64,000 nucleotides of DNA from Gammaproteobacteria bacterium (GTDB lineage Bacteria; Pseudomonadota; Gammaproteobacteria; Eutrophobiales; Eutrophobiaceae), in NCBI GenBank assembly GCA_965250225.1, contig CBDFNQ010000035.1, forward strand, positions 129,641 to 193,640, given 5' to 3'. The notes beneath the pieces were generated by a model. It worked only from the letters and a program-made list of their open reading frames with translations. It did no database searches and was not told the origin of the DNA. Position 1 is the stretch's first letter, and each line of letters opens with the position of its first letter. Both the position numbers and the translations under genes were made by a program. This document shows, piece by piece, positions 988 through 46,838 of the stretch.

Positions 988-2757
988 ATGAATGACACCT
1001 TCACAGTTCCCAGAATTCATATACTGGATCCCATATTATCGAATCAAATTGCGGCTGGTGAGGTCATCGAGCGGCCTGCTTCGGTGGTTAAGGAATTACT
1101 GGAAAATTCTCTTGATGCCAATGCTAAACAGATCACTATAGATCTCGAACGAGCGGGTAGTACATTAATTCGTGTTACCGACAGTGGGCACGGTATTCAT
1201 CCCGACGATATGTCGATGGCACTACAAAGTCATTCCACAAGTAAGATCCATAAGACATCTGATCTGGCATCGATCACCAGTCTCGGTTTTCGCGGTGAAG
1301 CATTGGCAAGTATTGCATCGGTGTCGCGCTTCACTTTGCAAAGTTGTCACGATAGTAGTCAACAAGGTGTGTCGCTAACCTTTTCAGCAGATCAAACTCC
1401 CGTGTTAGAACCGTGTGCTCGACCTGGAGGTACTACAGTTGAAGTGCGAAATTTATTTTTTAATACACCAGCAAGAAGAAAATTTTTACGTACAGAGACT
1501 ACTGAATACCTACACAGTATTAGTTTAGTAAAGGCAATGGCATTATGTCATTTTGATTGTGCTTTTCGTATGCAGCACAATCAACGATCTGTTCTAAATC
1601 TTACAATAGCAAGCAATAATTACTCAAAAAGAATCAGTGAAATCTGTGGCAGACAATTCCTGGAGAATTCACAAGCGTTTGATTTTTCCCGCGAAGCAAT
1701 GCGTTTATGGGGTTGGTTGGGAGATGCTGAAATAGCGCGCAGTCAAACAGATAAACAATACCTTTATATTAATGGACGCTATATTCGAGACAAACATATC
1801 AATCATGCAATACGACTTGCCTTTCAGGATCTACTCTATCCTGGACGCCATCCCAGTTATGTGATCTTTCTTGAACTGGATCCGGCTCAAATGGATGTTA
1901 ACGTGCATCCAGGCAAACAAGAAGTACGCTTTCAACGAACCCGTGATGTGCATGATTTTGTTTATAGTTGTCTGAATCAGGTTTTATCACCGAATAGCTC
2001 AAGCCTGGTCGATGTGCCAATGAACGACATTTCATTGTCGTCATCCAATAATGATGATACAGAAATTCATGAGTCAGCTGAACCATATGCTTCTGATAAT
2101 ACAAATTTCCGAGAAAATAATAACATACTGCTGCGAACAATATTTGATGCAAATAACGATTTACCAGATCACAATCTATCGTTAAATAATCGTTATCTGA
2201 TCACGCAGGTAAAGGAAGGTTTTTTATTGATCGATGTATTTGCTGCGCGAGAGCAGATGGTATTAGAAACACTGCAACAACAATATACAAAAAATTCTGT
2301 CATCAGTAGACCTTTATTAATGCCAGTCGATTATCAGAACACATTAGATAATATTGATCTGTTAGAAGAACATTCGGCAATCTTATCAAGGATTGGATTT
2401 CATTATAGACGCACAGCACCTGAACGTTTATTGATCCGTGAATTGCCCGAATGCCTTCGAACTATTCAAATAAATATTTTTTTAAATGACCTGATTGCTT
2501 TATTAACTAAGAACGACAGTGAAGAAAATTTGACTAAAACTATAATGAAATTGGCTGCCAGTCATTGCAACGATGAAATGCCAGAAACATTACGAGGAAC
2601 ATCATCTGGAAAATTCTCAGTAGAATTACCTGTTGATGAACGCAAACTATTAATTGCCTATTACCATCAGCAGATGAAAAATAAGTCACGTTTTAAAAAA
2701 ACACTCTGGTGTGTTCTCGATGATGATGCGATAAAAAAAATTCTTTCTTCGCATTAA
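988..2757 (+). CDS. mutL: DNA mismatch repair protein MutL
   Basis: GHKL ATPase N-terminus ILSNQIAAGEVIERPASVVKELLENSLDA. ATG 988 gives the canonical MutL N-terminus; TTG 946 from the track is a less likely upstream start. The gene order mutL-miaA-hfq is conserved. Confidence 0.95.
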   Translation: MNDTFTVPRIHILDPILSNQIAAGEVIERPASVVKELLENSLDANAKQITIDLERAGSTLIRVTDSGHGIHPDDMSMALQSHSTSKIHKTSDLASITSLGFRGEALASIASVSRFTLQSCHDSSQQGVSLTFSADQTPVLEPCARPGGTTVEVRNLFFNTPARRKFLRTETTEYLHSISLVKAMALCHFDCAFRMQHNQRSVLNLTIASNNYSKRISEICGRQFLENSQAFDFSREAMRLWGWLGDAEIARSQTDKQYLYINGRYIRDKHINHAIRLAFQDLLYPGRHPSYVIFLELDPAQMDVNVHPGKQEVRFQRTRDVHDFVYSCLNQVLSPNSSSLVDVPMNDISLSSSNNDDTEIHESAEPYASDNTNFRENNNILLRTIFDANNDLPDHNLSLNNRYLITQVKEGFLLIDVFAAREQMVLETLQQQYTKNSVISRPLLMPVDYQNTLDNIDLLEEHSAILSRIGFHYRRTAPERLLIRELPECLRTIQINIFLNDLIALLTKNDSEENLTKTIMKLAASHCNDEMPETLRGTSSGKFSVELPVDERKLLIAYYHQQMKNKSRFKKTLWCVLDDDAIKKILSSH

Positions 2758-2766
2758 ATATTATTT

Positions 2767-3699
2767 ATGTCTAAGGTTATTTTTTTAATGGGTTCAACTG
2801 CAACGGGTAAAACCGATATGGCGGTGGAATTAACCCGTCATTTCCCGATGGAGATCATCAGTGTTGATTCGGCAATGGTCTACAAGGACATGAATATAGG
2901 AACGGCAAAACCGACTGCCGATATTTTACAAAATGCTCCCCATCGTTTGATTGACATTTGTGATCCTAAAGAATCTTATTCAGCTGCACGTTTTCGTACC
3001 GATGCCTTACGAGAGATTAAGATGATAGAAGCGGATAGAAAAATCCCTTTATTAGTCGGTGGTACTGGATTGTATTTTCGTACACTGGAAGAGGGGATCA
3101 GTATATTGCCCGAGGCTGATTCCAGTATTCGAACTCAGCTGGATGCTGAACGTCGGCAATCTGGTCTTGCAGCTTTATACGAAAGATTAAAAGCCATCGA
3201 TCCAGGGTCTGCTGAACGTATTGATGCGAATGACCCACAACGAATACAGAGGGCATTGGAGGTTTTTGAAATCAGTGGCAAAACCATGAGTGAACTGTTT
3301 GAAGAGAATCAGAGTGAGCGTTTAGACAGAGATATCATCAAGATTATTTTATTGCCACAAGATAGAAAAACTCATCGCCAGGTGGTTGAACAGCGTTTTT
3401 TACAAATGTTAGAGCATGGCTTGCTCGATGAAGTCCAGCAGCTCTTTGAACGCGGCGATCTGACTGCTGAATTACCGGCAATGCGAATGGTTGGCTACCG
3501 ACAAGTGTGGCGCTATCTTGAGGGTGAATTGGAGTATGAAGAAATGAAAAAACACGCTATTATTGCAACGCGTCAATTAGCTAAACGCCAGACGACCTGG
3601 CTGAGAAAAGAACAAAACGGTCAATTTCTTGACTCGCAAGGTAATGAGAAATTCAGTAAAGTAAAAGAAGTTATAATCAACTATCCTTTAACTGGATAA
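2767..3699 (+). CDS. miaA: tRNA dimethylallyltransferase MiaA
   Basis: P-loop MGSTATGKT and DSAMVYKDMNIGTAKP motif. Position between mutL and hfq. Confidence 0.95.
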   Translation: MSKVIFLMGSTATGKTDMAVELTRHFPMEIISVDSAMVYKDMNIGTAKPTADILQNAPHRLIDICDPKESYSAARFRTDALREIKMIEADRKIPLLVGGTGLYFRTLEEGISILPEADSSIRTQLDAERRQSGLAALYERLKAIDPGSAERIDANDPQRIQRALEVFEISGKTMSELFEENQSERLDRDIIKIILLPQDRKTHRQVVEQRFLQMLEHGLLDEVQQLFERGDLTAELPAMRMVGYRQVWRYLEGELEYEEMKKHAIIATRQLAKRQTTWLRKEQNGQFLDSQGNEKFSKVKEVIINYPLTG

Positions 3700-3826
3700 A
3701 ATCCTGTAATATGGGGTATGACAACTCGCTAGAAGTTGATAATTATACTTAACTATAATAATTACTGTTAAACACACTACATCGGGCTGATAAGCAAGAA
3801 TACATAATAATAAGGAGATACCCAAA

Positions 3827-4069
3827 ATGAGCAAAGGGCATACATTACAAGACCCGTTTCTCAATGCACTCAGAAAGGAGAGGATTCCGGTTTCAATATT
3901 TTTGGTCAATGGGATCAAACTTCAAGGCCAGGTTGAATCGTTCGACCAGTTTGTTGTGCTGTTGAAAAATACGGTAAGCCAGTTGGTTTATAAACACGCA
4001 ATTTCAACCATAGTCCCGGCGAAAAACGTCAAAATGCCAAGGGCCGATGAGGATGGTGGGGATAATTAG
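3827..4069 (+). CDS. hfq: RNA chaperone Hfq
   Basis: [48 protein letters not shown] carries the Sm1/Sm2 motifs. AAGGAG SD lies upstream. Confidence 0.97.
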
Positions 4070-4095: not shown

Positions 4096-5391
4096 TTGAA
4101 TCAATCACTTGATGATAAAGAACGAGCCGTTTTAGTTCACATCGATTTTGGTAAAGCCGATTTCGATGAAGACCAGGAAGAGTTTGTTGAATTGGTGAAT
4201 TCTGCCGGTATTGAGCCGGTTGAGCTCGTTGTTGGTAGTCGAAATTCACCCGATCCTAAGTATTATTTAGGCAGTGGAAAAGCCGAAGAGATTGCTGCCG
4301 CCTGTTCACTGCACAAAACTGATGTAGTGATCTTTAATCATTCACTTTCACCGAGTCAGGAGCGCAATCTGGAACGTCTTTGTCAATCTCGTGTGGTTGA
4401 TCGTGTGGGTTTGATCCTGGACATATTTGCCCAGAGAGCCTTTAGTTATGAAGGTAAGTTGCAGGTGGAACTTGCACAACTCACACACTTGTCGACTCGT
4501 TTGATCCGTGGTTGGACCCATTTGGAACGTCAGAAGGGTGGTATTGGATTACGTGGCCCTGGTGAGAGCCAACTTGAAACGGATAGACGTTTGATACGCC
4601 AACGGATTAAAACTATCAAGGCACGTTTAGCTAAGGTCAAGAGCCAACGGCATCAAGGGAGACAGAAACGAATTCGATCCTCTGTGCCTCTTGTTGCTCT
4701 GGTTGGTTATACTAACGCAGGAAAATCGACGTTATTCAATACCTTAACTGGCGCTGAGGTGTATGTCGCTGATCAGTTATTTGCGACGCTTGATCCGACT
4801 CAAAGACGTTTACAATTATCCTCCGGGCATGTGGCCGTGTTAACCGATACGGTGGGGTTTATTCGCCAGATCCCACATGATTTGATTGAATCCTTTCGCG
4901 CCACGTTAGAGGAAGTGAAGGAGGCAGATTTATTATTGCATGTGTTGGATGTGAATGATCCGCAGAGGTTAGCGCATATGGAACAGGTGAATGAGGTCAT
5001 TCATGAGATTGGGGCTGAACACGTTCCTCAAATAGAGGTGTATAATAAGATCGATTTGAATGAAGCATTCGCTGATGCGAGGTTGGAGACGAATAAGGAG
5101 GGTGATCCTAAACGTGTTTGGCTATCAGCAAAGACGACTGAGGGTATGGATGCTCTGAAAGAGGCCATTAATCTATCGCTTTATGAAAAAAATACACATC
5201 ATCAATTGCATATACCGCCAAGTGCTGGCAAATTACGCGCTCAATTATTTGATGCGGGTGCAGTTGAAGAGGAATCACTGCATGAACAAGGTGGTTGGAT
5301 AATGAATATACATCTTGATGAAACAACTCTGGAGTCTCTCTGTCAACAATCGGGTATTAGCTCGGCAGAGATACAGACGTCACTTATTTAA
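4096..5391 (+). CDS. hflX: GTPase HflX
   Basis: TTG start. G motifs GYTNAGKST, DTVGF and NKID. The N-terminal region resembles the HflX domain. Follows hfq. Confidence 0.93.
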   Translation: MNQSLDDKERAVLVHIDFGKADFDEDQEEFVELVNSAGIEPVELVVGSRNSPDPKYYLGSGKAEEIAAACSLHKTDVVIFNHSLSPSQERNLERLCQSRVVDRVGLILDIFAQRAFSYEGKLQVELAQLTHLSTRLIRGWTHLERQKGGIGLRGPGESQLETDRRLIRQRIKTIKARLAKVKSQRHQGRQKRIRSSVPLVALVGYTNAGKSTLFNTLTGAEVYVADQLFATLDPTQRRLQLSSGHVAVLTDTVGFIRQIPHDLIESFRATLEEVKEADLLLHVLDVNDPQRLAHMEQVNEVIHEIGAEHVPQIEVYNKIDLNEAFADARLETNKEGDPKRVWLSAKTTEGMDALKEAINLSLYEKNTHHQLHIPPSAGKLRAQLFDAGAVEEESLHEQGGWIMNIHLDETTLESLCQQSGISSAEIQTSLI

Positions 5392-5427
5392 CTAATTTTT
5401 AATAAATATATTTTGGAGAGTATGACT

Positions 5428-6579
5428 ATGGGCTGGAATGAGCCTTCAGGCAACAATAACGACAAAGACAAAGATCCCTGGGGTAACCGTGGGAATGATG
5501 ATGGGCCACCTGATCTCGATGAGATCATGAAAAAATGGCAGAAAGGCCTGGGTGGTATATTTGGTAAAAAATCCAATGGCTCACCGACTCGCTCAGGTAA
5601 TCGTGGCTCCTTACCGTGGGGGCTCATGTTAGCGGCATTGGTTGCCTGGCTTGCCTATGACATGTCTTATGCCATAGATCAGCAGGAACGTGGTGTTGTT
5701 TTACGCTTTGGACGAGCGGTAGATACCATGCAACCAGGCTTAAATTTTCGCTTTCCTCGTCCAGTAGAAGAGGTTCTCAAAGTCAACGTTGGTCAGGTTC
5801 GTCAGATAACCTCTCGCTCCTCGATGCTGACCCAGGATGAAAACATTGTCGATGTTGATGTTGCTGTAAAATGGCAGATTAAGGATCCGACAGAATATCT
5901 ATTTAATGTCTATGACCCTGTATCAACATTACATCAGGCAACCGAGAGTGCAGTCCGTGATGTGATTGGTAAATCAAAGCTGGATTTTGCCTTGACCGAA
6001 GGCCGTAATGAGATTGCCCAGAAACAACAATTACTCTTGCAGAGTATTCTGGATGAATATAAAGCCGGGATCTTGATTGTTGGTGTTGAATTGCAATCAA
6101 CGAAACCACCTGAACAGGTGAAAGATGCCTTTGATGATGTCATTAAGGCACGGGAAGACAAAGAACGTAAGGTCAATGAAGCAGAAGCCTATCGTAATGA
6201 AATTATTCCTCAGGCGAGAGGTGAAGCCGCTCGTATCACGGAAGAATCCAATGGTTATAAAGCGCGTGTCATAGCCAAGGCAGAAGGTGAGGCCAGTCGT
6301 TTTGATCAGCAATTACGGGAATATCAACGGGCACCGGAAATCACTCGTCAGCGTTTGTATCTGGATGCGATGGAAAATGTGTTTTCCAATAGCAGTAAGA
6401 TTTTATTAGATGCAGATAATAGCAACAGTCTGATGTATTTACCCATTGATCAACTAATGAAACAAAACAGCTTAATGCCTTCAAATAACAACACGCCTCG
6501 GAGCACATCCAGTCAATCATCACAATTGAACAATACCGCTCCTTCTCGTATTCCTGACACAACAAGAGGAGTCCGCTAA
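5428..6579 (+). CDS. hflK: FtsH protease modulator HflK (SPFH/band 7)
   Basis: N-terminus MGWNEPSGNNNDKDKDPWG is typical of HflK, and a band-7 domain is present. GGAG at 5415-5418 favours ATG 5428; alternative starts are TTG 5413 and ATG 5422. Confidence 0.93.
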   Translation: MGWNEPSGNNNDKDKDPWGNRGNDDGPPDLDEIMKKWQKGLGGIFGKKSNGSPTRSGNRGSLPWGLMLAALVAWLAYDMSYAIDQQERGVVLRFGRAVDTMQPGLNFRFPRPVEEVLKVNVGQVRQITSRSSMLTQDENIVDVDVAVKWQIKDPTEYLFNVYDPVSTLHQATESAVRDVIGKSKLDFALTEGRNEIAQKQQLLLQSILDEYKAGILIVGVELQSTKPPEQVKDAFDDVIKAREDKERKVNEAEAYRNEIIPQARGEAARITEESNGYKARVIAKAEGEASRFDQQLREYQRAPEITRQRLYLDAMENVFSNSSKILLDADNSNSLMYLPIDQLMKQNSLMPSNNNTPRSTSSQSSQLNNTAPSRIPDTTRGVR

Positions 6580-7442
6580 TGTCTTTCAGAATTATAAGTA
6601 TAATCTTTGTTCTTATTATTGTTGGCTCAGCGACACTCTTTAAGGTTGACCAATGGCAATCAGCATTAGTATTAAAGTTTGGTGAGATCGTTCGTACTGA
6701 TTTCAAACCAGGCTTACATTACAAGATTCCTTTTGTAAATACCGTGGCTAAATTTCAATCTCGATTATTAAGTCTGGATAAGGATCCTCAACGTTTCTTA
6801 ACCTATGAGAAAAAAGATTTAATTGTCGATTATTACGCTAAATGGCGTATTGCTGATATTGAAAAATTTTATATTGCAAGCCGTGGTGGTGATATTGAAT
6901 ACGCGAATAGCCTGTTAGGGCAAAGTATCAATCAGGCGCTACGAGATGAGTTCGGTAAACGTACTGTGCAAGAAGTAGTCGCTGGTGAGCGTGATGAAGT
7001 TATGAATGCAGTGCAAGAAATTTCTGTAGAGCTTGAAGATCGCTATGGTATTGAGGTTGTCGATGTTCGAACAAAACGGATTGACTTGCCAGAAGAAGTT
7101 AGTAGCAAGGTGTATGATCGTATGCGATCTGAACGTGTCCGTGTTGCGAAAGAATTGCGTGCACAAGGTGCTGAGGCGGCAGAGCGTATACAGGCGAATG
7201 CTGATCGTGAGCGTGAAGTGATTCTGGCAAATGCTTATAGAGATGGGGAAACTATTCGTGGTGAAGGTGATGCTCAGGCAACAGGTACATATGCAGCATC
7301 ATTTGGGAAAGACGAAGAGTTCTATGCATTTTATCGAAGTTTGAACGCGTATGAGAGTAGTTTTAAAAATAACAATAATGTTTTGTTGCTTGAGCCTGAT
7401 TCAGAATTTTTTAAATATTTTAATAATCAATCAGGTCATTAA
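6579..7442 (+). CDS. hflC: FtsH protease modulator HflC (SPFH/band 7)
   Basis: Band-7 paralog. The start overlaps the hflK stop (TAATG). N-terminal TM helix. Confidence 0.93.
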   Translation: MSFRIISIIFVLIIVGSATLFKVDQWQSALVLKFGEIVRTDFKPGLHYKIPFVNTVAKFQSRLLSLDKDPQRFLTYEKKDLIVDYYAKWRIADIEKFYIASRGGDIEYANSLLGQSINQALRDEFGKRTVQEVVAGERDEVMNAVQEISVELEDRYGIEVVDVRTKRIDLPEEVSSKVYDRMRSERVRVAKELRAQGAEAAERIQANADREREVILANAYRDGETIRGEGDAQATGTYAASFGKDEEFYAFYRSLNAYESSFKNNNNVLLLEPDSEFFKYFNNQSGH

Positions 7443-7459
7443 TTGACACAAAAAAAACG

Positions 7460-7488
7460 AGCCAGGTTTCAATGCCTGGCTTTTGTTT
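7460..7488 (+). terminator. Rho-independent terminator after hflC
   Basis: Stem AGCCAGG/CCTGGCT (7 bp) with an 8-nt loop, followed by TTTGTTTG about 18 nt after the hflC stop. Confidence 0.65.
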
Positions 7489-7566
7489 GTGTGGCATTTA
7501 ATCGGAGCAATCTTGGGTAATGATAGCCAGTATGAATGAATCCCTTTCACAGTCTGGACAGCCATT

Positions 7567-7751
7567 ATGTGGTCAATGATTTTAACCGCAATTGCCTTGA
7601 TGTTAATATTGGAAGGTATATTGCCTTTCATATCACCGGATAAATGGCGGCAAGTTTTCTTATTGGTGTTACAAATGAAAACCTCTGAAATACGTTTTCT
7701 GGGTTTGTCGAGCATGTTAGGTGGCTTACTTATTTTATTTCTGGTGTTGTA

Positions 7752-7752
<1 letters not shown>
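7567..7752 (+). CDS. Small two-TM membrane protein, DUF2065/YjeT-like
   Basis: 61 aa with two hydrophobic helices. It occupies the slot between hflC and hisZ/purA that yjeT holds in enterobacteria. Confidence 0.65.
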
Positions 7753-10264
<2,512 letters not shown>

Positions 10265-10811: not shown

Positions 10812-11384
10812 TTACATTAGCTCTGGCTTCATTGCTGTCAGGTTGATTAAGGTTTCTTCCCTATTATCCGGTGGCCGCACACCAAACAATCTTTCCATCA
10901 GTCCAAGATCTTTGCGACTCCACCATAAGAATGGATAGGATATTGATTCATTGGACACCTCAAATCCGGCACCTCTGATTAATTGCAAATATTCCTCGGC
11001 TGTCTTCTGCACTCGCATCGGGTGTCTGAAAAGTAATCGAATTATCCATGAGTGGATGTAGTGTTTTGTCGACTCCGCAAATAACAGAATACCGCCCGGT
11101 TTGAGTATTCTGTAGTACTCTTTGATGGCTTTTTGTTGATAAATAAGATGGTGGAAGGTCTGGTGGCAAAATAACAAATCGACCGAATCGTCATGGAGTT
11201 GCATGTTCGAATTGGAACAACAAACAAATTCAACATCAATACCAATTAGTTTATCCGGGGAAAAACGATCATCTAGCATCTTGAGAGAACGGCCATAGCC
11301 GCAACCGACATCAGCAATAACGGAATATCTCCGTTGTTCTTTCGGTAGTAAACTTTGTAAATCGTTTAGCGCTCTTTCCAACAC
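10812..11384 (-). CDS. Class I SAM-dependent methyltransferase
   Basis: Motif I VIADVGCGYGRS and post-I/II LKPGGILLFAE. GTG start. A stop lies 11 codons upstream, so the N-terminus is short for the family. Confidence 0.75.
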   Translation of the reverse strand: MLERALNDLQSLLPKEQRRYSVIADVGCGYGRSLKMLDDRFSPDKLIGIDVEFVCCSNSNMQLHDDSVDLLFCHQTFHHLIYQQKAIKEYYRILKPGGILLFAESTKHYIHSWIIRLLFRHPMRVQKTAEEYLQLIRGAGFEVSNESISYPFLWWSRKDLGLMERLFGVRPPDNREETLINLTAMKPELM

Positions 11385-11599
11385 CTGGACCGTCCAGGTA
11401 TCGGTGTGTAAAAACTATTTTCCAAAAGCTGATTCAGGGACATGGGGCTCTGTTATCGAGGCACTCATCAAAATTACGTTTCAATACTCAAGGGAGAAAT
11501 CGGATTATTTAGATTACGACAAAATTCTAGTAATCGGAAATGGTTTTCACAGGATGGAGTCCTCGACGAGTGTCTTCTTCGAATAGAAAGTTTTTTGTA

Positions 11600-11686
11600 T
11601 GGTGCCCAGGAGAGGACTTGAACCTCCACGGGGTTACCCCCACTAGCACCTGAAGCTAGCGCGTCTACCAATTCCGCCACCTGGGC
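11600..11686 (-). tRNA. tRNA-Leu (anticodon CAG)
   Basis: Minus strand reads GCCCAGGTGGCGGAATTGGTAGACGCGCTAGCTTCAGGTGCTAGTGGGGGTAACCCCGTGGAGGTTCAAGTCCTCTCCTGGGCACCA. It has a 7-bp acceptor stem, anticodon stem CTAGC/GCTAG with loop TTCAGGT, a long variable arm GGGG-TAA-CCCC, a TTCAAGT T-loop and an encoded CCA. Confidence 0.95.
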
Positions 11687-11733
11687 ATTTCTATTTAGGC
11701 GGGCACCAAATTTTTTTATATTGAGCATTAATT

Positions 11734-11753
11734 AAATAAACGCGCTACGCGCG
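11734..11753 (-). terminator. Minus-strand intrinsic terminator with no upstream CDS
   Basis: Minus strand reads CGCGC-GTA-GCGCG followed by TTTATTT. On the plus strand no T-tract follows the hairpin. The stem is short (5 GC pairs). Confidence 0.4.
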
Positions 11754-11929
11754 GTCGCTAGAAAATGTGTTCCAGACATTTTCAACCGAATATATCCATA
11801 TATTCGTTTTGGACTCCATGTCCTTCGCGATACTCATGCTTCCTCGGTAATTGCTCCCGGCATTACTCTACCCATCCTTGGAGTCGTGCACATCGGTCGC
11901 TCTTATGCGTCCGTGCATCCGCGACACTT

Positions 11930-12081
11930 GGACTCCTGCTTCGCTCTACCACCTACCTCCCTGTAGGTGTGTCCATCGTCTACCCGCCGTTCACGCCATC
12001 CTGGCTGCCACGGCATTCGGGCTCCTCGGCTCTGGCCTCCTGCTTCGCTCTACCACCTACTTCCCTGTAGGCGTGCCCATC
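11930..12081. repeat. 48-nt imperfect direct repeat (11930-11977 and 12034-12081), part of a degenerate roughly 104-119-nt tandem periodicity starting near 11811
   Basis: GGACTCCTGCTTCGCTCTACCACCTACCTCCCTGTAGGTGTGTCCATC versus GGCCTCCTGCTTCGCTCTACCACCTACTTCCCTGTAGGCGTGCCCATC, 44/48 identical by eye. A weaker third unit begins with GGACTCCATGTCCTTCGC at 11811. Confidence 0.85.
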
Positions 12082-12098
12082 ATTCCGTCACCTGGGCA

Positions 12099-12107
12099 TG
12101 TTATAGT
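12099..12107 (+). promoter_or_regulatory. Candidate extended -10 promoter for rnr
   Basis: TGtTATAGT at 12099-12107 matches the TGnTATAAT extended -10 pattern. No good -35 element. It would give a roughly 40-nt rnr leader. Confidence 0.3.
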
Positions 12108-12129
12108 GTCGAATTGAAAACAACGGCGG

Positions 12130-12158
12130 ACTCTACCGATCCCCCTGGATATTGTCAA
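12130..12158 (-). promoter_or_regulatory. Candidate sigma70 promoter for the minus-strand sRNA
   Basis: Minus strand has TTGACA (12158-12153), a 17-nt spacer, then TAGAGT (12135-12130). It overlaps the rnr start codon region. Confidence 0.3.
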
Positions 12159-14326
12159 TGAGCAAACGCGGGCAAAAAAACAAACGCGGTTCGTCAGATG
12201 ATTACGAATACATCATTCCTGAGCGACAGCAAATTCTGGATTTTCTGGTTGAACATGGCCAGCCATGTGGTATTCGTGGGATTGCTGCAGCACTGATGCA
12301 GGAAGATCACAGTGAATCACGAAAGGCATTGCGTCGTCGTCTCAGGGCGATGGAGCGTGATGGGCAGATCATACGTAATCGTAAAGAAGGTTATGCCCCG
12401 ATCAATAAAATCGATTTGCTACAAGGAAGTATTATTGCGCATCCAGATGGTTATGGATTCATGGCACTGGATGAGGGTGGTGATGATTTGTTTTTATCCC
12501 CCAAACAAATGCGCAAAGTGTTGCACGGTGATCGGATCCTTGCTCGTGTTTTAGGGATCGATCATCGGGGGCGAAAAGAGGTCAGTATTGTTGAGGTGTT
12601 GGAGAGGGCTAATCAACGCGTGGTTGGCCGCTTTTCGAGGGACGGCCACATTGCTTATTTGATCCCGGATAACAAGCGTATTCATCAAGACATCATTATC
12701 CCAGATGGCAAACAAGGCGAAGCAAAGAAAGGTGATATTGTGGTTGCGGAGATTATTCAGCAACCCGATAAACACACACAACCGATAGGCCAGATTGTGC
12801 AAGTCCTTGGTAACCGTATGGAGCCAGGAATGGCTGTAGATATCGCAATACAAAATCACAACTTGCCCAATGACTGGCCGGAAGAGGTACTTGAGGAGAT
12901 TGCGAGGTTCGGTGAAGCGATCGATGATAAACAAATTAGTGGTAGAAAAGATATTCGTGATCTGGCTTTAGTCACTATTGATGGTGAAGATGCCAGGGAT
13001 TTTGACGACGCAGTGTACTGTGAACACCGGGGTCAGGAATGGCGGTTGTTGGTTGCCATTGCGGATGTTTCAAGTTATGTTTTACCAGGGACATCATTGG
13101 ATAATGAAGCGTATGAACGTGGAACTTCAGTTTACTTTCCCCAGAGAGTTATACCGATGTTGCCTGAAGTATTGTCGAATGGTTTATGTTCTTTGAATCC
13201 AAAGATTGATCGCCTGTGTATGGTTTGCGAACTGAGTATCGACAACAAAGGTAATATCAAACGAACAAAGTTTTATGAAGCCGTCATGAGTTCAGCCGCA
13301 CGATTAACCTATGATAAAGTTGCAGGAATATTAATTGATAACAATAAAGAGCTAAAGGAAGAATACAAATCTGTATTATCCCATCTATCTAATCTGTATC
13401 AGTTGTTCCAGTTGTTACATGAAAAACGTAAACAAAAAGGTATGCTGGATTTTGATACCAACGAACCCAGTTTCAAGTTTTCTGATGATGGTCATATCGA
13501 ATCGATCAGTTCTTATCAACGCAACGATGCACATAAAATGATCGAAGAATTTATGTTGGCGGCAAATGTAGCCTCGGCCAATTTCCTGATCGAAAAAAAA
13601 TGTCCGGCAATGTACCGGGTTCATGAAACTCCGAAAGAAGAAAAGTTAAAAGATCTGCGTGCTTTCCTGTCCGAACTTGGTTTGCAGCTGGCTGGGGGCG
13701 ATGAACCCGCCGCAATGGATTACGCAATGTTAATGCAGTCGATCAGTGATAGGGAGGATGCGCATCTGATTAACATGGTGCTATTACGCAGTATGCCATT
13801 GGCCGTTTATGATGCGACGAACCAGGGGCATTTTGGTTTAGCATTCGAGGCCTATACACATTTCACATCACCGATCCGTCGGTATCCTGATCTTATGGTT
13901 CATCGTGCTATAAAACATATGATCCAGAATGACGCTCCTGAAAAATTTTCTTATTCTCAAGCTCAGGTTCAAAAAATGGCTCAGCATTGTTCTGAAACCG
14001 AACGACGTGCCGAAGAGGCCTCACGTGAGGTTGTACGTTGGTATAAATGTAAATACATGGATGAAAAAATCGGTGAAGAGTTTCATGGAACCATCAGTTC
14101 AGTTACCTCGTTTGGATTATTTGTTGAGCTCGATGAGATATTCATTGAAGGGCTGGTTCATGTGACAGCATTGCTTCCTGAGGATTATTATCACTTTGAA
14201 GCAGTCGCCCATCGTTTACGAGGCGAGCGTAAAAACCATGTTTTTCAATTGGGCAATCGTCTTAAAATCAAGGTGGTGCGTGTTGATCTTGAAGATAAGA
14301 AGATCGATTTTGAATTGGTGCAGTAA
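12158..14326 (+). CDS. rnr: Ribonuclease R
   Basis: Cold-shock-like N-terminal domains, an RNB catalytic domain (IDGEDARDFDDAV, HFGLAFEAYTHFTSPIRRYPDL) and a C-terminal S1 domain (GTISSVTSFGLFVEL). ATG 12158 is preferred over TTG 12152. Confidence 0.95.
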   Translation: MSKRGQKNKRGSSDDYEYIIPERQQILDFLVEHGQPCGIRGIAAALMQEDHSESRKALRRRLRAMERDGQIIRNRKEGYAPINKIDLLQGSIIAHPDGYGFMALDEGGDDLFLSPKQMRKVLHGDRILARVLGIDHRGRKEVSIVEVLERANQRVVGRFSRDGHIAYLIPDNKRIHQDIIIPDGKQGEAKKGDIVVAEIIQQPDKHTQPIGQIVQVLGNRMEPGMAVDIAIQNHNLPNDWPEEVLEEIARFGEAIDDKQISGRKDIRDLALVTIDGEDARDFDDAVYCEHRGQEWRLLVAIADVSSYVLPGTSLDNEAYERGTSVYFPQRVIPMLPEVLSNGLCSLNPKIDRLCMVCELSIDNKGNIKRTKFYEAVMSSAARLTYDKVAGILIDNNKELKEEYKSVLSHLSNLYQLFQLLHEKRKQKGMLDFDTNEPSFKFSDDGHIESISSYQRNDAHKMIEEFMLAANVASANFLIEKKCPAMYRVHETPKEEKLKDLRAFLSELGLQLAGGDEPAAMDYAMLMQSISDREDAHLINMVLLRSMPLAVYDATNQGHFGLAFEAYTHFTSPIRRYPDLMVHRAIKHMIQNDAPEKFSYSQAQVQKMAQHCSETERRAEEASREVVRWYKCKYMDEKIGEEFHGTISSVTSFGLFVELDEIFIEGLVHVTALLPEDYYHFEAVAHRLRGERKNHVFQLGNRLKIKVVRVDLEDKKIDFELVQ

Positions 14327-14334
14327 TCATTCCG

Positions 14335-15090
14335 ATGCCGAGAGAAAAAAAAGAATTTGTCTATGGTATTCATGCAGTGCGTTTTGCCCTGCAAGGTACA
14401 CCTGAATCTGTATTTGAACTTTGGGTCAAAGAAGATAAAAAACCATCTCATGATATTGTACAGATAAAAAAAATAGCGAAGAAAAATGCAATTTCTATCC
14501 AGACAGTCACCGCCAGGACATTAGAGGAAAAAACACACTCAAGCCAACATCAGGGGATTGCATTGTTAAGGCAAGCCCGTCATGTGAACAATGAAAATGA
14601 TCTGCAAAGTTGGCTCAAGGAGTACGAAGATAAACTGAAGTTATTTTTAATTCTGGATAATGTCCAGGATCCGCACAATCTCGGTGCTTGTCTGCGTACT
14701 GCTGATGCAGCCGGCGTCGATGGCATTATTGTTTCAAAAGATAATTCGGTGGGTCTAACGCCTACTGTTTGTAAGGTTGCGAGTGGTGCAGCGGAAACTA
14801 TTACCTTTTATACAGTCACCAATCTGGCTCGTACTATTCGACAATTAAAAGAACACAATATCTGGATCACAGGCACCGATGGAGAAGCAGAACAAAGTCT
14901 TTATCAAACCGACTTTACGTTATCCGTAGCTCTAGTTCTGGGTGCTGAAGGTCAAGGTTTGCGTGAAAACACACGTAAGCATTGCGATCAATTGATCAGT
15001 ATCCCCATGAATGGAACAGTGGAAAGTCTGAATGTTTCAGTTGCAACCGGTGTGTGTCTGTTTGAGGTGCTAAGACAGAGGAATAATTAA
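14335..15090 (+). CDS. rlmB: 23S rRNA (guanosine-2'-O)-methyltransferase RlmB (SpoU family)
   Basis: SpoU motifs LDNVQDPHNLGACLRTA, LVLGAEGQGL and ESLNVSVATG. The rnr-rlmB order is conserved. Confidence 0.92.
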   Translation: MPREKKEFVYGIHAVRFALQGTPESVFELWVKEDKKPSHDIVQIKKIAKKNAISIQTVTARTLEEKTHSSQHQGIALLRQARHVNNENDLQSWLKEYEDKLKLFLILDNVQDPHNLGACLRTADAAGVDGIIVSKDNSVGLTPTVCKVASGAAETITFYTVTNLARTIRQLKEHNIWITGTDGEAEQSLYQTDFTLSVALVLGAEGQGLRENTRKHCDQLISIPMNGTVESLNVSVATGVCLFEVLRQRNN

Positions 15091-15971
15091 TTTTTTTCTG
15101 AGTAATATTTTGTATCTTTCCAGCTCACTTTCCAGGATGTATTAGTCCAGAGTTTTATGCGAGTGAAAAAGTTATTGGGTTTTTTTACGGATTTCTTTTT
15201 TTTCGAGGCATGTTGAACTTCAGGTTTTGGTTTTTTTGTTTGAATATTTTCATTGATCTGCTCTTTTTCGCTTACAAGTTCGACTGACTCAACAATCATC
15301 GACATATCAGTCAGCTCTTTACCTGATTTGATATGATTTTTCTTTGTCAATAAATCATCGATCACCGTTTGTATTTGTGATCGTATCTGATCAGACAGGT
15401 TAGTATCGACCATTAAAAAGGAAAAATTTTTCAGCATGTCATCGATCTCTGAAGTTATATTGTTTCGATAGACCTTTTCTTTCATTTTAAGAGTGACAAT
15501 TCTATCTTTTATCGAATTCATCGGGACAATACATCTGAAAGGGGGTATTGGTTGCCCTCTTTCCTTTAGTAAAAGCCTTAATCCAATAGCGGTTTGAGAG
15601 TCTTTCTTGAATTCCTCAATCTCGGAACTTAAATCGTCAGAGAAATCAATTTGTTTTTCTTCTATTTCATCCTGGGATATTTCGATGAGTGTTTTATTGA
15701 AGACTTGGCTTAATGATTTTAGTACTTTGTGATCCAGGCTTCTCAGGACTTCTTTTACCATGTCTGTCGGGGAATCTTTCATCTGCTCCGACAGCATTGT
15801 GAGAAAATTCTGTATTTCATCGGGGATGTTGTAACTGATATTATCTAATAGTAGTACCGAGTTCAGACCATTCTTCATTTGTTCCAGGTCATTGGTTACG
15901 GCGATAAGCTTTTCCAGGGCCAGGCGCCTTTTTTGTAAGCTTTCGAGAGTTTCAGACTGATTATTGGACAT
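15087..15971 (-). CDS. Hypothetical acidic coiled-coil protein with a basic Trp-rich C-terminal tail
   Basis: 294-aa ORF with no recognisable motif. Lys-rich tail KKKKSVKKPNNFFTRIKLWTNTSWKVSWKDTKYY. The stop overlaps the rlmB stop (convergent). Confidence 0.5.
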   Translation of the reverse strand: MSNNQSETLESLQKRRLALEKLIAVTNDLEQMKNGLNSVLLLDNISYNIPDEIQNFLTMLSEQMKDSPTDMVKEVLRSLDHKVLKSLSQVFNKTLIEISQDEIEEKQIDFSDDLSSEIEEFKKDSQTAIGLRLLLKERGQPIPPFRCIVPMNSIKDRIVTLKMKEKVYRNNITSEIDDMLKNFSFLMVDTNLSDQIRSQIQTVIDDLLTKKNHIKSGKELTDMSMIVESVELVSEKEQINENIQTKKPKPEVQHASKKKKSVKKPNNFFTRIKLWTNTSWKVSWKDTKYYSEKN

Positions 15972-44523: not shown

Positions 44524-45143
44524 CAAGATAGTTGTCGCGTAAACGTAAAAAATAGTTAAGCCGCCCTCTTAACCGTAGATGTATATTCATTGGCTTTATC
44601 AGGGTTTAATAACACCTCCTGAACAGGTTCCCAATTCCTTGTGTTACCTGACCAACGCTGCGGATATTTTGCTTTGGCTGCCTGATAAACTTGATGGCGT
44701 TTCGCCAGAATTGTTTTATCGTTTCCCGCGTGGCGTTGTGCCGGCGTCACAAATTTAATCGCACTATGAAGATGCTCATGGTTATACCAGCTGACAAAAC
44801 CTGCGACCCATTCACGTGCATCGACTAATGTCTTAAAGGGCAGTGAGGGATATTCAGGACGATATTTCAAGGTCTTAAACAAGGATTCAGAATACGGATT
44901 ATCATTGCTGACCGAGGGACGACTCAAGGATGGGATAATACCCAACTGTTGTAAGGTCGCCAACATCGTGGCCCCTGTCATCGGGCTGCCATTGTCTGAA
45001 TGCAACACGACCTGGTGGCGTTGAAGGCCTTCACGGTAACACACATCCACCAACAAATTCGCCGCCAAGTCACTGCTCTCCGAGTCATGTACCTGCCACC
45101 CTACAATCTTCCGGCTATAGATATCCATCATCAGATACAAGTA
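44524..45143 (-). mobile_element. IS3-family element, 3' fragment (orfB C-terminal part and right end)
   Basis: Track ORF 44556..45140 encodes the rve integrase core ...YLYLMMDIYSRKIVGW...HSDNGSPMTG...NPYSESLFKTLKYRP. The end sequence CAAGATAGTTGTCGCG resembles the other end TGAGATTAAGTGTCGAC at 47693. Boundaries are approximate. Confidence 0.75.
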
Positions 45144-45144
45144 A

Positions 45145-45732
45145 AAAAATAACCCTTTAATTAAATAAGGTAAACCCCCGGCTCTGCCGGGGGACTCTCA
45201 AAGGTTTGACCGTTCCCACGGTCTATCTATCCTAGTTACTCTACCAAAAGTAACAAAGGAAATAGAAATGAGAGATTACAAAAGTTTGTCCCATAGCAGA
45301 TGGGATTGTAAGTATCATCGTGTTTATACTGAAATATCGTCAGAAGGTTGTTTATGGGAGTTTTAGGTCTTATATCGGGGAGATGCTTCACGAGTTAGCG
45401 AGTCATCTAGAAAGTAAGATTGAAGAGGGACATATTGATGGGTGCTCATATCCATATGTGCATCAGTATTCCGCCAAAGTATCCGGTATCGAAAGTAGTG
45501 GCTACATCAAAGGGAAAAGTGCGATTATGATTTCACGGAGATTTGGCAGGAAGGCAAGGAATTACAAAGGAGAAAGCTTCTGGGCCAAAGGATATTTCGT
45601 TTCAACAATAGGTTTAGATGAAGAAATGGTACGAGAGTACATACGAACACAGGGCGAACGAGATAAATATTTCGATCAACAAAACTTACCGCATTAGCGG
45701 TGGGCTTTGCCCCTTTGAGGGGCTCACCCGTA
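45145..45732 (+). mobile_element. IS200/IS605-family element (decayed) inserted in IS3 orfB
   Basis: Left-end hairpin CCCCCGGCTCTGCCGGGGG (from about 45174) and right-end hairpin GCCCCTTTGAGGGGC (about 45708-45722) flank a tnpA pseudogene. It abuts IS630 copy B. Confidence 0.7.
45268..45697 (+). pseudogene. IS200-type Y1 (HUH) transposase TnpA with at least 3 frameshifts
   Basis: MRDYKSLSHSRWDCKYH (frame 1) continues as VFILKYRQKVVYGSFRSYIGEML (frame 2, shift near 45319). The HUH region GAHIHMCISIPPKYPVSKVV is readable only in the third frame (about 45435-45500). The reading then returns to GYIKGKSAIMISRRFG...FWAKGYFVSTIGLDEEMVREYIR. Confidence 0.8.
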
Positions 45733-46838
45733 TATACCCAAGATCGATGAAAGAGCTTGATGTTTATGAATTAAGAGATCAGTCTATCACCTATGAGCAA
45801 GATTGAATTAACCGCAGAAAACAAATTGAAATTAGAAGCACGACATAAGCAAGTGCGAGATATCCGGGAAGGTGATCGTATCAAAGCCGTATTACTGAAT
45901 TCTGAAGGGTGGAGCACAACGATGATAGCGCAAGCCTTGCGCAAACATGAAACCTGTATACTTCGTCACTTGAAGGACTATACCGGAGAGCAGAAATTGC
46001 ACTGTGCAAACGGCGGTTCCGAGGAGAAATTAAGCAAGCGACAATGTGACGAATTACTCGCACATCTGACAGCACATCTATATCAACATAACCACCAAAT
46101 TGTGGCTTACATCAAGACCCGTTATGGGGTTGACTACACGGTATCGGGTTTACATAAATGGTTGCATCGTCAAGGATTTGTTTATAAACAACCCAAAGGG
46201 ATCCCCGCCAAAGCCGATGTTGAACAACAACATGCCTTTATCAAGCAGTATGACGTATTGAAAGCAAACGTCGGTGCTGATGAGCCTATTTTGTTTGGTG
46301 ATGGCGTGCATCCGACACAGTCGACGAAATTGAGTCACGGTTGGATAAAGAGAGGGACAAATAAGCTTATCAAAACAACCGCGAGTCGCACACGGATTAA
46401 CCTATTAGGTGCGATTGAACTCAATGCCTTGTCAAACACGGTGACAGAAACCTATGACACGATTAATGCCGACAGCATTGTTGATTTTCTATCCAAATTA
46501 CGAGCGCAATACGTTGATGCAAACACCCTTCACTGGATAGTTGATGGGGCGGGTTATCATAAGGCGGCGAGTGTTAAAGAAAAGGCAAACGAACTTAATA
46601 TTAAGATACACATCCTGCCGCCTTATAGTCCTAATTTGAATCCGATAGAACGTTTATGGAAAGTGATGAACGAACACGTCCGTAATAACCACTATTTCCA
46701 TTCGGCCAAGGAATTTCGTGAGCAAATCGATGACTTTTTCAAAAACACTTTACCGGATATCGCGGACTCATTGAACGATAGAATTAATGATAACTTTCAG
46801 ATCATCGATCCTGCAACTTGAAGTTGATTGAGTATATA
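45733..46838 (+). mobile_element. IS630-family insertion sequence, copy B (1106 bp), inverted relative to copy A
   Basis: Same ends as copy A; the end sequences and all ORF translations are identical. TA at both junctions. Inserted at ...ADKEIY of IS3 orfB. Confidence 0.9.
45793..46821 (+). CDS. IS630-family transposase (identical to the 32033..33061 copy)
   Basis: The 342-aa translation is identical to copy A, and so are the two antisense track ORFs. Confidence 0.92.
   Translation: MSKIELTAENKLKLEARHKQVRDIREGDRIKAVLLNSEGWSTTMIAQALRKHETCILRHLKDYTGEQKLHCANGGSEEKLSKRQCDELLAHLTAHLYQHNHQIVAYIKTRYGVDYTVSGLHKWLHRQGFVYKQPKGIPAKADVEQQHAFIKQYDVLKANVGADEPILFGDGVHPTQSTKLSHGWIKRGTNKLIKTTASRTRINLLGAIELNALSNTVTETYDTINADSIVDFLSKLRAQYVDANTLHWIVDGAGYHKAASVKEKANELNIKIHILPPYSPNLNPIERLWKVMNEHVRNNHYFHSAKEFREQIDDFFKNTLPDIADSLNDRINDNFQIIDPAT

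Follow-up and report, generated by a model that had tools for sequence, protein, structure and literature searches.

What does a bacterium keep in an unusually long, purine-rich gap between a tRNA gene and the gene for RNase R? We asked this of a 64,000-nucleotide (nt) stretch of contig CBDFNQ010000035.1 (positions 129,641 to 193,640; assembly GCA_965250225.1) from a Gammaproteobacteria bacterium, hereafter the window. In it, positions 11687-12157 separate tRNA-Leu(CAG), at 11600-11686 on the minus strand, from rnr, whose ATG lies at 12158 on the plus strand and whose product is RNase R (TIGR02063, E=9e-267). A preliminary description had read the minus strand of this gap as a free-standing small RNA (sRNA) gene of the CsrB/CsrC/Rsm family, that is, as an antagonist of CsrA. 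We find instead that the element belongs to the tRNA-Leu transcription unit. Of its anatomy, a tRNA-Leu leader that is in part tRNA-derived and carries conserved modules with GGA in their hairpin loops, we are highly confident. That this leader is a candidate decoy for a CsrA-type protein is a reading we consider possible and hold only tentatively.

Divergent tRNA-Leu(CAG)/rnr pairs are common. The gaps of 78 further loci had a median length of 134 nt, 0.9 GGA per 100 nt and a purine fraction mostly of 0.4-0.5. Compared with these, the gap in the window is an outlier (471 nt, 3.8 GGA per 100 nt, purine fraction 0.61), and the next is that of a relative, L163, which has the highest purine fraction among the other 78 (0.60). 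As the preliminary description had noted, the gap contains no credible coding sequence: its minus strand has no open reading frame (ORF) of at least 40 amino acids, and a protein-coding reading of the three plus-strand ORFs was dropped because none had a Pfam match. The closest relatives, all uncultured Gammaproteobacteria, were reached through homologues of RNase R and RlmB. Listed by the amino acid identity of their RNase R to that of the window, they are L161/L162 (77%), L170 (GCA_024449835.1; 75%), L163 and L164 (74% each, and 86% identical to one another), L165 (68%), L166 (63%) and L167 (62%). RNase R-anchored scans of genome and metagenome contigs were used as background only and returned mostly distant relatives (at most 58% identity, except L001 with 72%) with short, ordinary gaps.

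Promoter and transcription unit

The following features define where transcription may begin and what it yields.

12130-12158, minus strand: promoter of the tRNA-Leu unit, with -35 TTGACA (12158-12153), a 17-nt spacer and -10 TAGAGT (12135-12130)
12099-12107, plus strand: candidate rnr promoter, an extended -10 element (TG-n-TATAGT) about 50 nt upstream of the rnr ATG
11600-11686, minus strand: intact tRNA-Leu(CAG) (ARAGORN; Rfam RF00005, 54.5 bits), the downstream product of the same transcription unit

The TTGACA-17-TAGAGT promoter given in the preliminary description is present and is the sole sigma-70-like site on either strand in 11400-12400. Its -35 overlaps the rnr ATG of the opposite strand, and a G+C-rich discriminator, CCGCCG (12129-12124), directly follows the -10, which would place the transcription start near 12123. 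Such discriminators are typical of stringently controlled stable-RNA promoters. The arrangement (CAT-TGACA, 17 nt, GGTA[G/A]AGT, then CCGCCG) is kept in all eight aligned loci, including the window. Relatives with short gaps reveal what it serves: tRNA-Leu begins about 33 nt past the -10 in L166 and about 90-110 nt past it in L164 and L165. Because the tRNA lies only 33-110 nt downstream in these loci, we take the promoter to be that of tRNA-Leu, and since no second promoter-like site precedes tRNA-Leu in 11400-12400, the element would be the 5' leader of the tRNA rather than a separate gene. On the tRNA strand, it occupies the interval from the tRNA promoter to the mature 5' end, within which no further promoter-like site was found.

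These observations bear directly on the proposal of a free-standing CsrB/CsrC/Rsm-family gene with its own promoter and Rho-independent terminator. In this genome, the promoter and a hairpin with a U-tract do bracket about 390 nt of the minus strand, L170 also has UUUGU past the hairpin, and the statistics of the element, given below, are CsrB-like. At the position of the proposed terminator, 11734-11753, CGCGC-GUA-GCGCG (11753-11741) is followed by UUUAUUU (11740-11734); the stem has 5 bp and -7.2 kcal/mol, compared with -21 and -28 kcal/mol for the CsrB and CsrC terminators, and the U-tract is missing in L163, L161 and L167. Efficient termination there would silence the tRNA, because no other tRNA promoter was found in 11400-12400, and the promoter appears to be shared with tRNA-Leu in all of the relatives aligned. 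Neither a Csr/Rsm match in Rfam nor a GacA box was found in the searches of the window described below. A separate sRNA gene is thus very improbable.

A reading in which the plus strand is the functional one, as a long pyrimidine-rich 5' untranslated region (UTR) of rnr or as DNA-level regulatory sites for rnr, would fit the location of the region upstream of rnr and its better fold z-score on that strand (-4.05, compared with -2.13 for the minus strand). No plus-strand sigma-70-like promoter was found in 11400-12400, however, and rnr probably has a proximal promoter. The extended -10 listed above is the reverse of a conserved ACACTATAAC box on the minus strand, which is kept in seven of the eight aligned loci (the window, L170, L161, L163, L164, L165 and L167) and stays about equally close to the rnr start in long and short leaders alike. 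If this box acts as the rnr promoter, the purine-rich region would not have to serve rnr as a 5' UTR. Moreover, gaps of about 134 nt suffice in 78 other genomes, the distance from rnr to the conserved blocks described below differs by 48 nt between L170 and the window, and a G-U pair in the hairpin of an internal repeat fits the minus-strand RNA only. Together with the conserved promoter, that pair favours the earlier assignment of transcription to the minus strand, and we regard a plus-strand function as extremely unlikely. If the box is the rnr promoter, only some 10 nt would separate the starts of rnr and tRNA-Leu, whose transcripts would overlap at their 5' ends.

GGA loops and conserved modules in the leader

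Read on the minus strand from the promoter towards the tRNA, the leader consists of the following parts.

12073-12097, minus strand: tRNA-Leu remnant or 'minihelix', GCCCAGGUGACGGAAU, then GA, then UGGGCAC
12033-12081, minus strand: 49-nt repeat copy 1, with CCUAC-AGGGAA-GUAGG (12071-12056), D-loop-like GGUAGAG and GCAGGAG
11970-12025, minus strand: module A, GCCC / GCCGU / GCC-AGGAU-GGC / ACGGC / GGGU, then GAGACGAUGGACA-type sequence
11929-11977, minus strand: 49-nt repeat copy 2, with CCUAC-AGGGAG-GUAGG (11967-11952)
11880-11931, minus strand: module B copy S2, with P1 GUCGC/GCGAC, P2 AUGC/GCAU around loop ACGGAC (11918-11905) and a degenerate P3
11847-11866, minus strand: hairpin GUAAU-GCCGGGAGCA-AUUAC, which folds with GGGAG in the loop
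11736-11837, minus strand: module B copy S3, with P1 (A)UCGC/GCGA(C) and P2 GGAC/GUCC around loop AUGGA (11823-11811)
11698-11711, minus strand: spacer box UUUGGUGCCCGCC, read directly from the sequence

In the minihelix, GCCCA pairs with UGGGC and CGGAA lies in the loop. Module A is a three-tier stem-loop that resembles the tRNA 5' end and whose apical hairpin occupies 12005-11995. Copy S3 of module B is interrupted by a 50-nt A+U-rich insertion (11810-11761) that consists of two more GGA-loop hairpins, CGAAUAUA-UGGA-UAUAUUCG at 11806-11787 and GAAAAUGU-CUGGAAC-ACAUUUUC at 11783-11761; after it comes P3, CGCGC-GUA-GCGCG (11753-11741), which is also part of the terminator-like site. These two hairpins and the two CCUAC/GUAGG hairpins are the four GGA-loop hairpins of the preliminary description, all of which we recovered on the minus strand. 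The direct repeat that it had reported at 48 nt extends to 49 nt and is 92% identical between copies.

We next asked how far the GGA content and its display in loops exceed chance. A recount gave 17 GGA on the minus strand of 11771-12086, the number originally reported, and 3 on the plus strand. The stated expectation of about 5 ignored base composition and has to be corrected: the stretch is 66% purine, so that about 12 are expected (12.5 from base composition; 11.9 +/- 2.3 in dinucleotide shuffles, 40 of 2000 of which reached 17). Per 316 nt, the GGA count of the element is the maximum of the window on either strand (background 3.7 +/- 2.2). With the same 64-kb window as background, AGGA/ANGGA on the minus strand reaches 11 per 240 nt and 14 per 316 nt, whereas the mean elsewhere is 1.2 per 240 nt and the next-highest peaks are 5-7. 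The second-highest peak of the window, at 45350-45589 on the plus strand, is an IS200-like transposase remnant and was rejected as an sRNA.

The display of GGA is more distinctive. The preliminary description had proposed folding the RNA as a check on whether GGA falls in loops or single-stranded regions, and it does: in minimum free energy folds GGA occupies 6-7 of 11 hairpin loops, compared with 1.2-1.4 +/- 1.0 in shuffles (1 of 400, 0 of 120 and 0 of 100 shuffles reached the observed count), these loop counts being dependent on the folding model. The mean unpaired probability is 0.67 for GGA and 0.53 for all purines. L170 shows the same pattern, with GGA in 5 of 9 loops compared with 0.65 in shuffles, none of 200 of which reached 5. 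We applied the same statistics to E. coli CsrB and CsrC (NC_000913.3) as positive controls.

CsrB: GGA in 9 of 14 loops; shuffle mean 1.5; 5.1 A(N)GGA per 100 nt
CsrC: GGA in 4 of 7 loops; shuffle mean 1.0; 5.3 A(N)GGA per 100 nt
The leader: GGA in 6 of 11 loops; shuffle mean 1.4; 3.6 A(N)GGA per 100 nt

Base composition is also close (A.28, C.20, G.33, U.18 in the leader; A.30, C.18, G.33, U.18 in CsrB). The resemblance to CsrB and CsrC is therefore quantitatively real, and in composition, A(N)GGA density and GGA-loop display the claimed fit to this class was borne out.

Comparison of relatives revealed that the hairpins are conserved as modules. Module B occurs twice in the window (11931-11880 and 11837-11736) and in L170, L163, L161 and L167, and consists of P1 (GUCGC/GCGAC), an internal loop, P2 of 3-5 bp, an apical loop and, immediately afterwards, P3 (CGCGC-RUA-GCGCG). 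A covariance model, R1, built from five copies with that of L170 left out, scored the copies used to build it at 38-73 bits, among them S2 (45 bits, E=7e-8; pairings checked) and S3 (37.8 bits, E=4e-6), and scored the L170 copy at 57 bits. Among 160 other loci it gave only weak hits, in coding regions or on the wrong strand, and module A scored weakly (17 bits). RNAalifold recovered P1, P2 and P3 independently from the four leader-proximal copies, with compensatory changes in 4 of 13 pairs. P2 varies among GGAC/GUCC, AUGC/GCAU, AUUGC/GCAAU and GCC/GGC, and its apical loop is always CA(N)GGA(N)G (AGGAA, AUGGA, ACGGAC, AGGAC or CAGGAA); in L170 the module B loop is the 7-nt AGUGGAG. The alignment of relatives that had been suggested as a check thus found stems that co-vary around loops that keep their motif. 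A closing stem P0 around module B (GAGU/ACUC, GGAGUC/GACUCC) looked plausible by eye, was not recovered by RNAalifold and is not claimed. An R1 hit at 12020-11972 that might have been a third module B copy is better explained as the paralogous module A, related to the tRNA 5' end.

The degree of conservation is high. The window and L170 share 55 of the 56 nt of module A, copies of module B show 65-80% identity, and P1 and P3 are nearly invariant in sequence. In the same genomes, four-fold degenerate sites of rnr are saturated (0.23-0.37 identical overall; 0.29 between the window and L170), which argues that the modules are under purifying selection rather than decaying. Segments found only in L170 carry further GGA-loop hairpins (AUGC-AUGGAA-GCAU and GAC-AGGAC-GUC), and the private insertions of the window likewise add hairpins of this kind. 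Because independent insertions all carry the same loop motif, the GGA motif itself seems to be selected. The modules were found in only five genomes, a small clade of uncultured Gammaproteobacteria, and the co-variation statistics are correspondingly thin, since module A hardly differs between two of the five. Whether or not CsrA is the partner, this locus has an undescribed RNA module under strong purifying selection, with a structure supported by compensatory changes, so far in five genomes of an uncultured clade.

Probable descent from tRNA-Leu

Where did this array come from? The preliminary description missed that the leader appears to open with a copy of the tRNA-Leu 5' end and to be built from tRNA-derived repeat units. 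The GCCCAGGUGACGGAAU segment at the leader start agrees with the tRNA 5' end at 15 of 16 nt, and the UGGGCAC that follows after GA is the 3' acceptor strand of the tRNA; in local alignment this tRNA-like 5' fragment scores 27, compared with a shuffle 95th percentile of 20. The remnant, which belongs to repeat family D2, is identical at 39 of 41 nt in L170. Only the 16-nt match is individually significant, the UGGGCAC and GGUAGA remnants being short and suggestive only, and the leader has no match to the tRNA model or by ARAGORN. Among the relatives, L163 carries 25 nt copied from the tRNA 5' end, and the L167 leader contains a recognisably decayed tRNA-Leu copy (GGTAGAC..TTCAGGG..CCACCA). D-loop-like GGTAGA[CG] occurs 4 times in the leader and 7 times in the rest of the window on both strands. 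From the 5' copies, the decayed copy and these remnants, we conclude that the leader probably derives at least partly from tandem or partial duplications of tRNA-Leu. In L161 and L162, which are contigs of two independent Logan assemblies of the 77% relative, both sequences end at nucleotide 29 of tRNA-Leu, which suggests that this genome has further copies of the 5' part of the tRNA that interrupt assembly.

The number of units changes quickly among these relatives.

L164, L165 and L166: no unit
L163 and L161: one unit
L167: two units
L170 and the window: a larger array

L163 and L164 differ by one unit, which is flanked by direct repeats of about 45 nt, and unequal recombination would explain the difference. 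Copy 1 of the 49-nt repeat is missing at the corresponding position of L170 and is probably an insertion or duplication specific to the lineage of the window; where copy 2 lies in the window, L170 instead carries 55 nt of other sequence, which forms GGA hairpins of its own. Both copies, which are absent from L170, and the 50-nt A+U-rich segment would accordingly be insertions in the lineage of the window, judging from this alignment. The tRNA-like fragment, in turn, tracks its own tRNA at position 7, with G in both in the window (12097-12082 and 11686-11671) and A in both in L170 (3759-3744 and 3521-3506), and the 3' strand of the tRNA has the corresponding change. This suggests either gene conversion involving the tRNA gene and the fragment or selection on both to pair with one and the same 3' strand.

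We also looked for signs that the leader had arrived by other routes. The 49-nt repeat has only its two copies in the window and none in 80 other loci, so that it was rejected as a dispersed element. Blastn of the leader against plasmids and phages gave no match, and a mobile-element or attachment-site origin is therefore unsupported. A search of viral contigs with an 18-mer from the modules gave two hits in G+C-rich coding sequence, with no GGA hairpin, which we judged to be due to chance.

If parts of the leader are clearly tRNA-Leu-derived, it might be nothing more than a functionless transcribed relic of tandem duplications, in which GGA came with the tRNA sequence (CGGAAU from the D arm, CAGG from the acceptor and anticodon regions) and was then multiplied by internal duplication. 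The quick changes in unit number, the recent duplication that made the 49-nt repeat (92% identity) and the modest excess of GGA over composition would all fit, and the procedure of Kulkarni et al. discards repeat-containing intergenic regions as unlikely sRNAs (PMC1488887). Neutral sequence could not, however, stay 65-98% identical beside saturated four-fold sites of rnr, nor would it preserve hairpins through compensatory changes or place GGA in 5-7 loops when shuffles of the same composition place it in about 1. Concerted evolution with the tRNA could account for the short 5' fragment only. We therefore consider a relic unlikely.

The surroundings of the locus offer several further observations. 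The gene order is hfq ... purA / S-adenosylmethionine (SAM)-dependent methyltransferase / tRNA-Leu / gap / rnr / rlmB. Window hfq (3827-4060, plus strand), whose product is 73% identical to E. coli Hfq over 78 amino acids, lies upstream of purA, within a run of plus-strand ORFs (4096-8939). L170 has a HigB-like toxin and helix-turn-helix antitoxin pair between purA and tRNA-Leu (2691-3277), plus a gene with a PEP-CTERM domain, and the window has the methyltransferase (10812-11384) at the position of the toxin-antitoxin pair; the tRNA-Leu flank is thus variable. Downstream of rlmB, a 294-amino-acid ORF (15087-15971, minus strand) has no NCBIfam or Pfam match. Further away, 44556-46821 is a mobile-element cluster composed of a minus-strand integrase-core (rve) fragment, an IS200-like Y1 transposase ORF that begins inside its Pfam profile and looks N-terminally truncated, and an IS630-type DDE_3 transposase.

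The leader as a candidate CsrA decoy among known systems

What might a tRNA leader with selected GGA loops do? Our tentative proposal is that it serves as a decoy for a CsrA-type protein. The leader would be an expanded 5' external transcribed spacer (ETS) of tRNA-Leu(CAG), transcribed leftwards from a tRNA-type promoter, in which degenerate tandem and partial tRNA-Leu copies would have become a stem-loop array with A(N)GGA presented in most apical loops. Cleavage by RNase P at 11686/11687, the 5' end of the tRNA, would free the leader, and partial termination at the weak hairpin and U-tract could perhaps do so as well in this genome. The freed RNA, purine-rich and roughly 390-440 nt long, would bind several CsrA/RsmA dimers through its GGA loops and lower free CsrA, as CsrB does. 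Since the promoter is of the stable-RNA type and not GacA/UvrY-dependent, the output of such a decoy would be expected to follow growth rate and guanosine tetraphosphate (ppGpp) rather than the BarA-UvrY signal.

How does the leader compare with what is expected of a Csr-type antagonist? Kulkarni et al. (2006) looked for intergenic regions in which AGGA/ARGGA is concentrated above genomic background, GGA lies repeatedly in loops or single-stranded regions, and a Rho-independent terminator and an upstream UvrY/GacA site are present (PMC1488887). The AGGA/ARGGA concentration of the leader stands out from its 64-kb background, and GGA lies in its predicted loops to an extent of the same order as in CsrB and CsrC; no UvrY/GacA sequence was found near its promoter, and the leader does not appear to be an independent transcription unit, given that its promoter is common to tRNA-Leu in all eight aligned loci.

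Several results weigh against a decoy for CsrA. Cmscan of the whole window at Rfam gathering thresholds returned tRNA only and no Csr/Rsm model, and at E<=10 positions 11500-12300 gave the tRNA plus two chance hits to eukaryotic families; with no match to the CsrB, CsrC, RsmX, RsmY or RsmZ models, the family assignment of the preliminary description falls. A GacA/UvrY box (TGTAAG-N6-CTTACA type) had not been seen before, and our search of the promoter region (near 12130-12400) with up to 3 mismatches was also empty; the DNA upstream of the -35 is rnr coding sequence, with no such site, and matches in the whole window number 18, compared with 24.6 expected by chance. Within the 64-kb window, tblastn found hfq and neither csrA nor uvrY. 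The enrichment of GGA beyond composition is only modest (p about 0.02-0.07), the 49-nt duplication, a single recent event, supplies two of the GGA loops, and L167 has module B, yet its leader is not GGA-rich overall. The element is also dispensable, being missing in the close relatives L164 and L165 and in the more distant L166, and L001 has no tRNA at this site. Near-perfect conservation over 56 nt, which includes stems and non-GGA positions, exceeds the need of a simple sponge and hints at a more specific partner. Finally, sequestration of CsrA during fast growth would be the opposite of the known logic of CsrB and CsrC. On its sequence, then, the leader appears to stand outside the known Csr/Rsm family, while by every sequence-level measure applied it is CsrA-antagonist-like.

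It is possible, if rather unlikely, that the structured RNA of the leader is conserved for a role unrelated to the titration of CsrA. It might be a sponge, either for sRNAs with C/U-rich seeds or for the anti-Shine-Dalgarno sequence (many motifs are AGGAG or GGAGG), or a platform for another protein. It might also act in cis on the folding or processing of pre-tRNA-Leu, with the pseudo-acceptor GCCCAGG and the UGGUGCCC box competing for the 3' acceptor/CCA strand of the tRNA. Conservation well beyond the GGA loops (55 of 56 nt, with P1 and P3 nearly invariant) would fit such a role, as would the tracking of position 7 by the pseudo 5' fragment (A in L170, G in the window), and the 3'ETS of leuZ, a tRNA spacer-derived sponge for RyhB and RybB, is a precedent. 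The UGGUGCCC sequence lies within the spacer box and is the reverse complement of the mature tRNA 3' end, GGGCACCA; it recurs before the tRNA or pseudo-units in five relatives, namely L161, L163 (2 copies; 3781-3790 and 3916-3926), L164, L165 and L167 (3 copies). The box is absent in L166 and in L170, however, and L170 has the richest GGA array per nucleotide. Because close relatives make the tRNA without the element, it is not needed for tRNA processing, which counts against a role in cis. Such functions would also leave unexplained why GGA is invariant in the loops of co-varying stems and why independent insertions carry GGA-loop hairpins. The spacer box, written as UUGGUGCCC, stands 12-25 nt upstream of the tRNA and also before pseudo-tRNA units, and within the precursor it may pair with CCA and the 3' strand of the acceptor.

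Returning to a decoy for CsrA, a fuller form of the proposal, which we regard as doubtful, is that pseudogenised copies of tRNA-Leu were exapted and gave rise to a new family of CsrA/RsmA antagonists, to which the leader belongs. Made as a tRNA leader from a stringently controlled promoter, such an RNA would couple free CsrA to growth rate and ppGpp rather than to GacS/BarA, and unequal recombination among its tRNA-derived repeats would adjust how much CsrA the RNA of each close relative can sequester (0 to about 7 GGA hairpins). Should the leader indeed titrate CsrA, this antagonist of Csr type would have an independent origin in tRNA, a different biogenesis (release by RNase P from a tRNA precursor) and an opposite regulatory input (growth-rate control of a stable RNA instead of a two-component system). 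It would also widen the search space for missing Csr/Rsm sRNAs in the many Gammaproteobacteria in which homology searches fail, and provide a clear example of tRNA pseudogenes recruited as regulatory RNA.

Among known systems, the leader shares its raw material with tandem tRNA-Leu(CAG) arrays such as E. coli leuQPV and with tRNA pseudogenes. Its units recur about every 90-130 nt, as would suit a tRNA with its spacer, and the leader has a copy of the 5' acceptor and D arm as well as D-loop GGUAGA remnants. In L163 the order of arms (acceptor 5' strand, D arm, a short AGGC-AGGA-GCCU arm, a long arm and a 5-bp GC arm) would resemble that of a class II tRNA. The units differ in that they lack the 3' acceptor strand and T loop, are not recognised by ARAGORN or the Rfam tRNA model, and are under purifying selection for a different structure.

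As a by-product of tRNA precursor processing, a proposed decoy in trans and an RNA whose expression is tied to a tRNA promoter, the leader would be akin to 3'ETS-leuZ, which differs in being a 3' spacer that base-pairs with Hfq-dependent sRNAs; the leader lies 5' of its tRNA and its recurring feature is a GGA-loop motif of the protein-binding type. The nearest published analogue appears to be the RrA/RrB/RrF sRNAs of E. coli, which are transcribed together with rrn operons and are reported to bind both CsrA and Hfq in vitro, and whose level the authors suggest reflects growth-rate regulation at rRNA promoters (PMC8144298). Like them, the leader would be a small RNA inside a stable-RNA operon with a growth-rate-regulated promoter, but RrA/RrB/RrF are short, lie at the rrn 3' end between dual terminators and are restricted to Enterobacterales (PMC8144298), whereas the RNA described here is long, precedes one tRNA gene as its 5' leader and is of unrelated clade and sequence.

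The likeness to the Csr/Rsm sRNAs themselves is one of form. At about 390 nt, the leader is comparable to CsrB/CsrC and to RsmX/Y/Z of Pseudomonas and Legionella; its base composition is almost identical to that of CsrB, its A(N)GGA density is high (3.6 compared with 5.1-5.3 per 100 nt), GGA occupies many short hairpin loops (6 of 11, compared with 9 of 14 and 4 of 7), and the loop consensus CA(N)GGA(N)G is that of Csr/Rsm sRNAs. It differs from them in having neither sequence or structure homology to the Rfam models nor a GacA/UvrY box upstream, in sharing a stable-RNA promoter with tRNA-Leu instead of forming an independent gene, in its weak and unconserved terminator, and in the tRNA origin of some of its parts. 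Its non-GGA sequence, moreover, is far more conserved than is usual for sponges of this kind.

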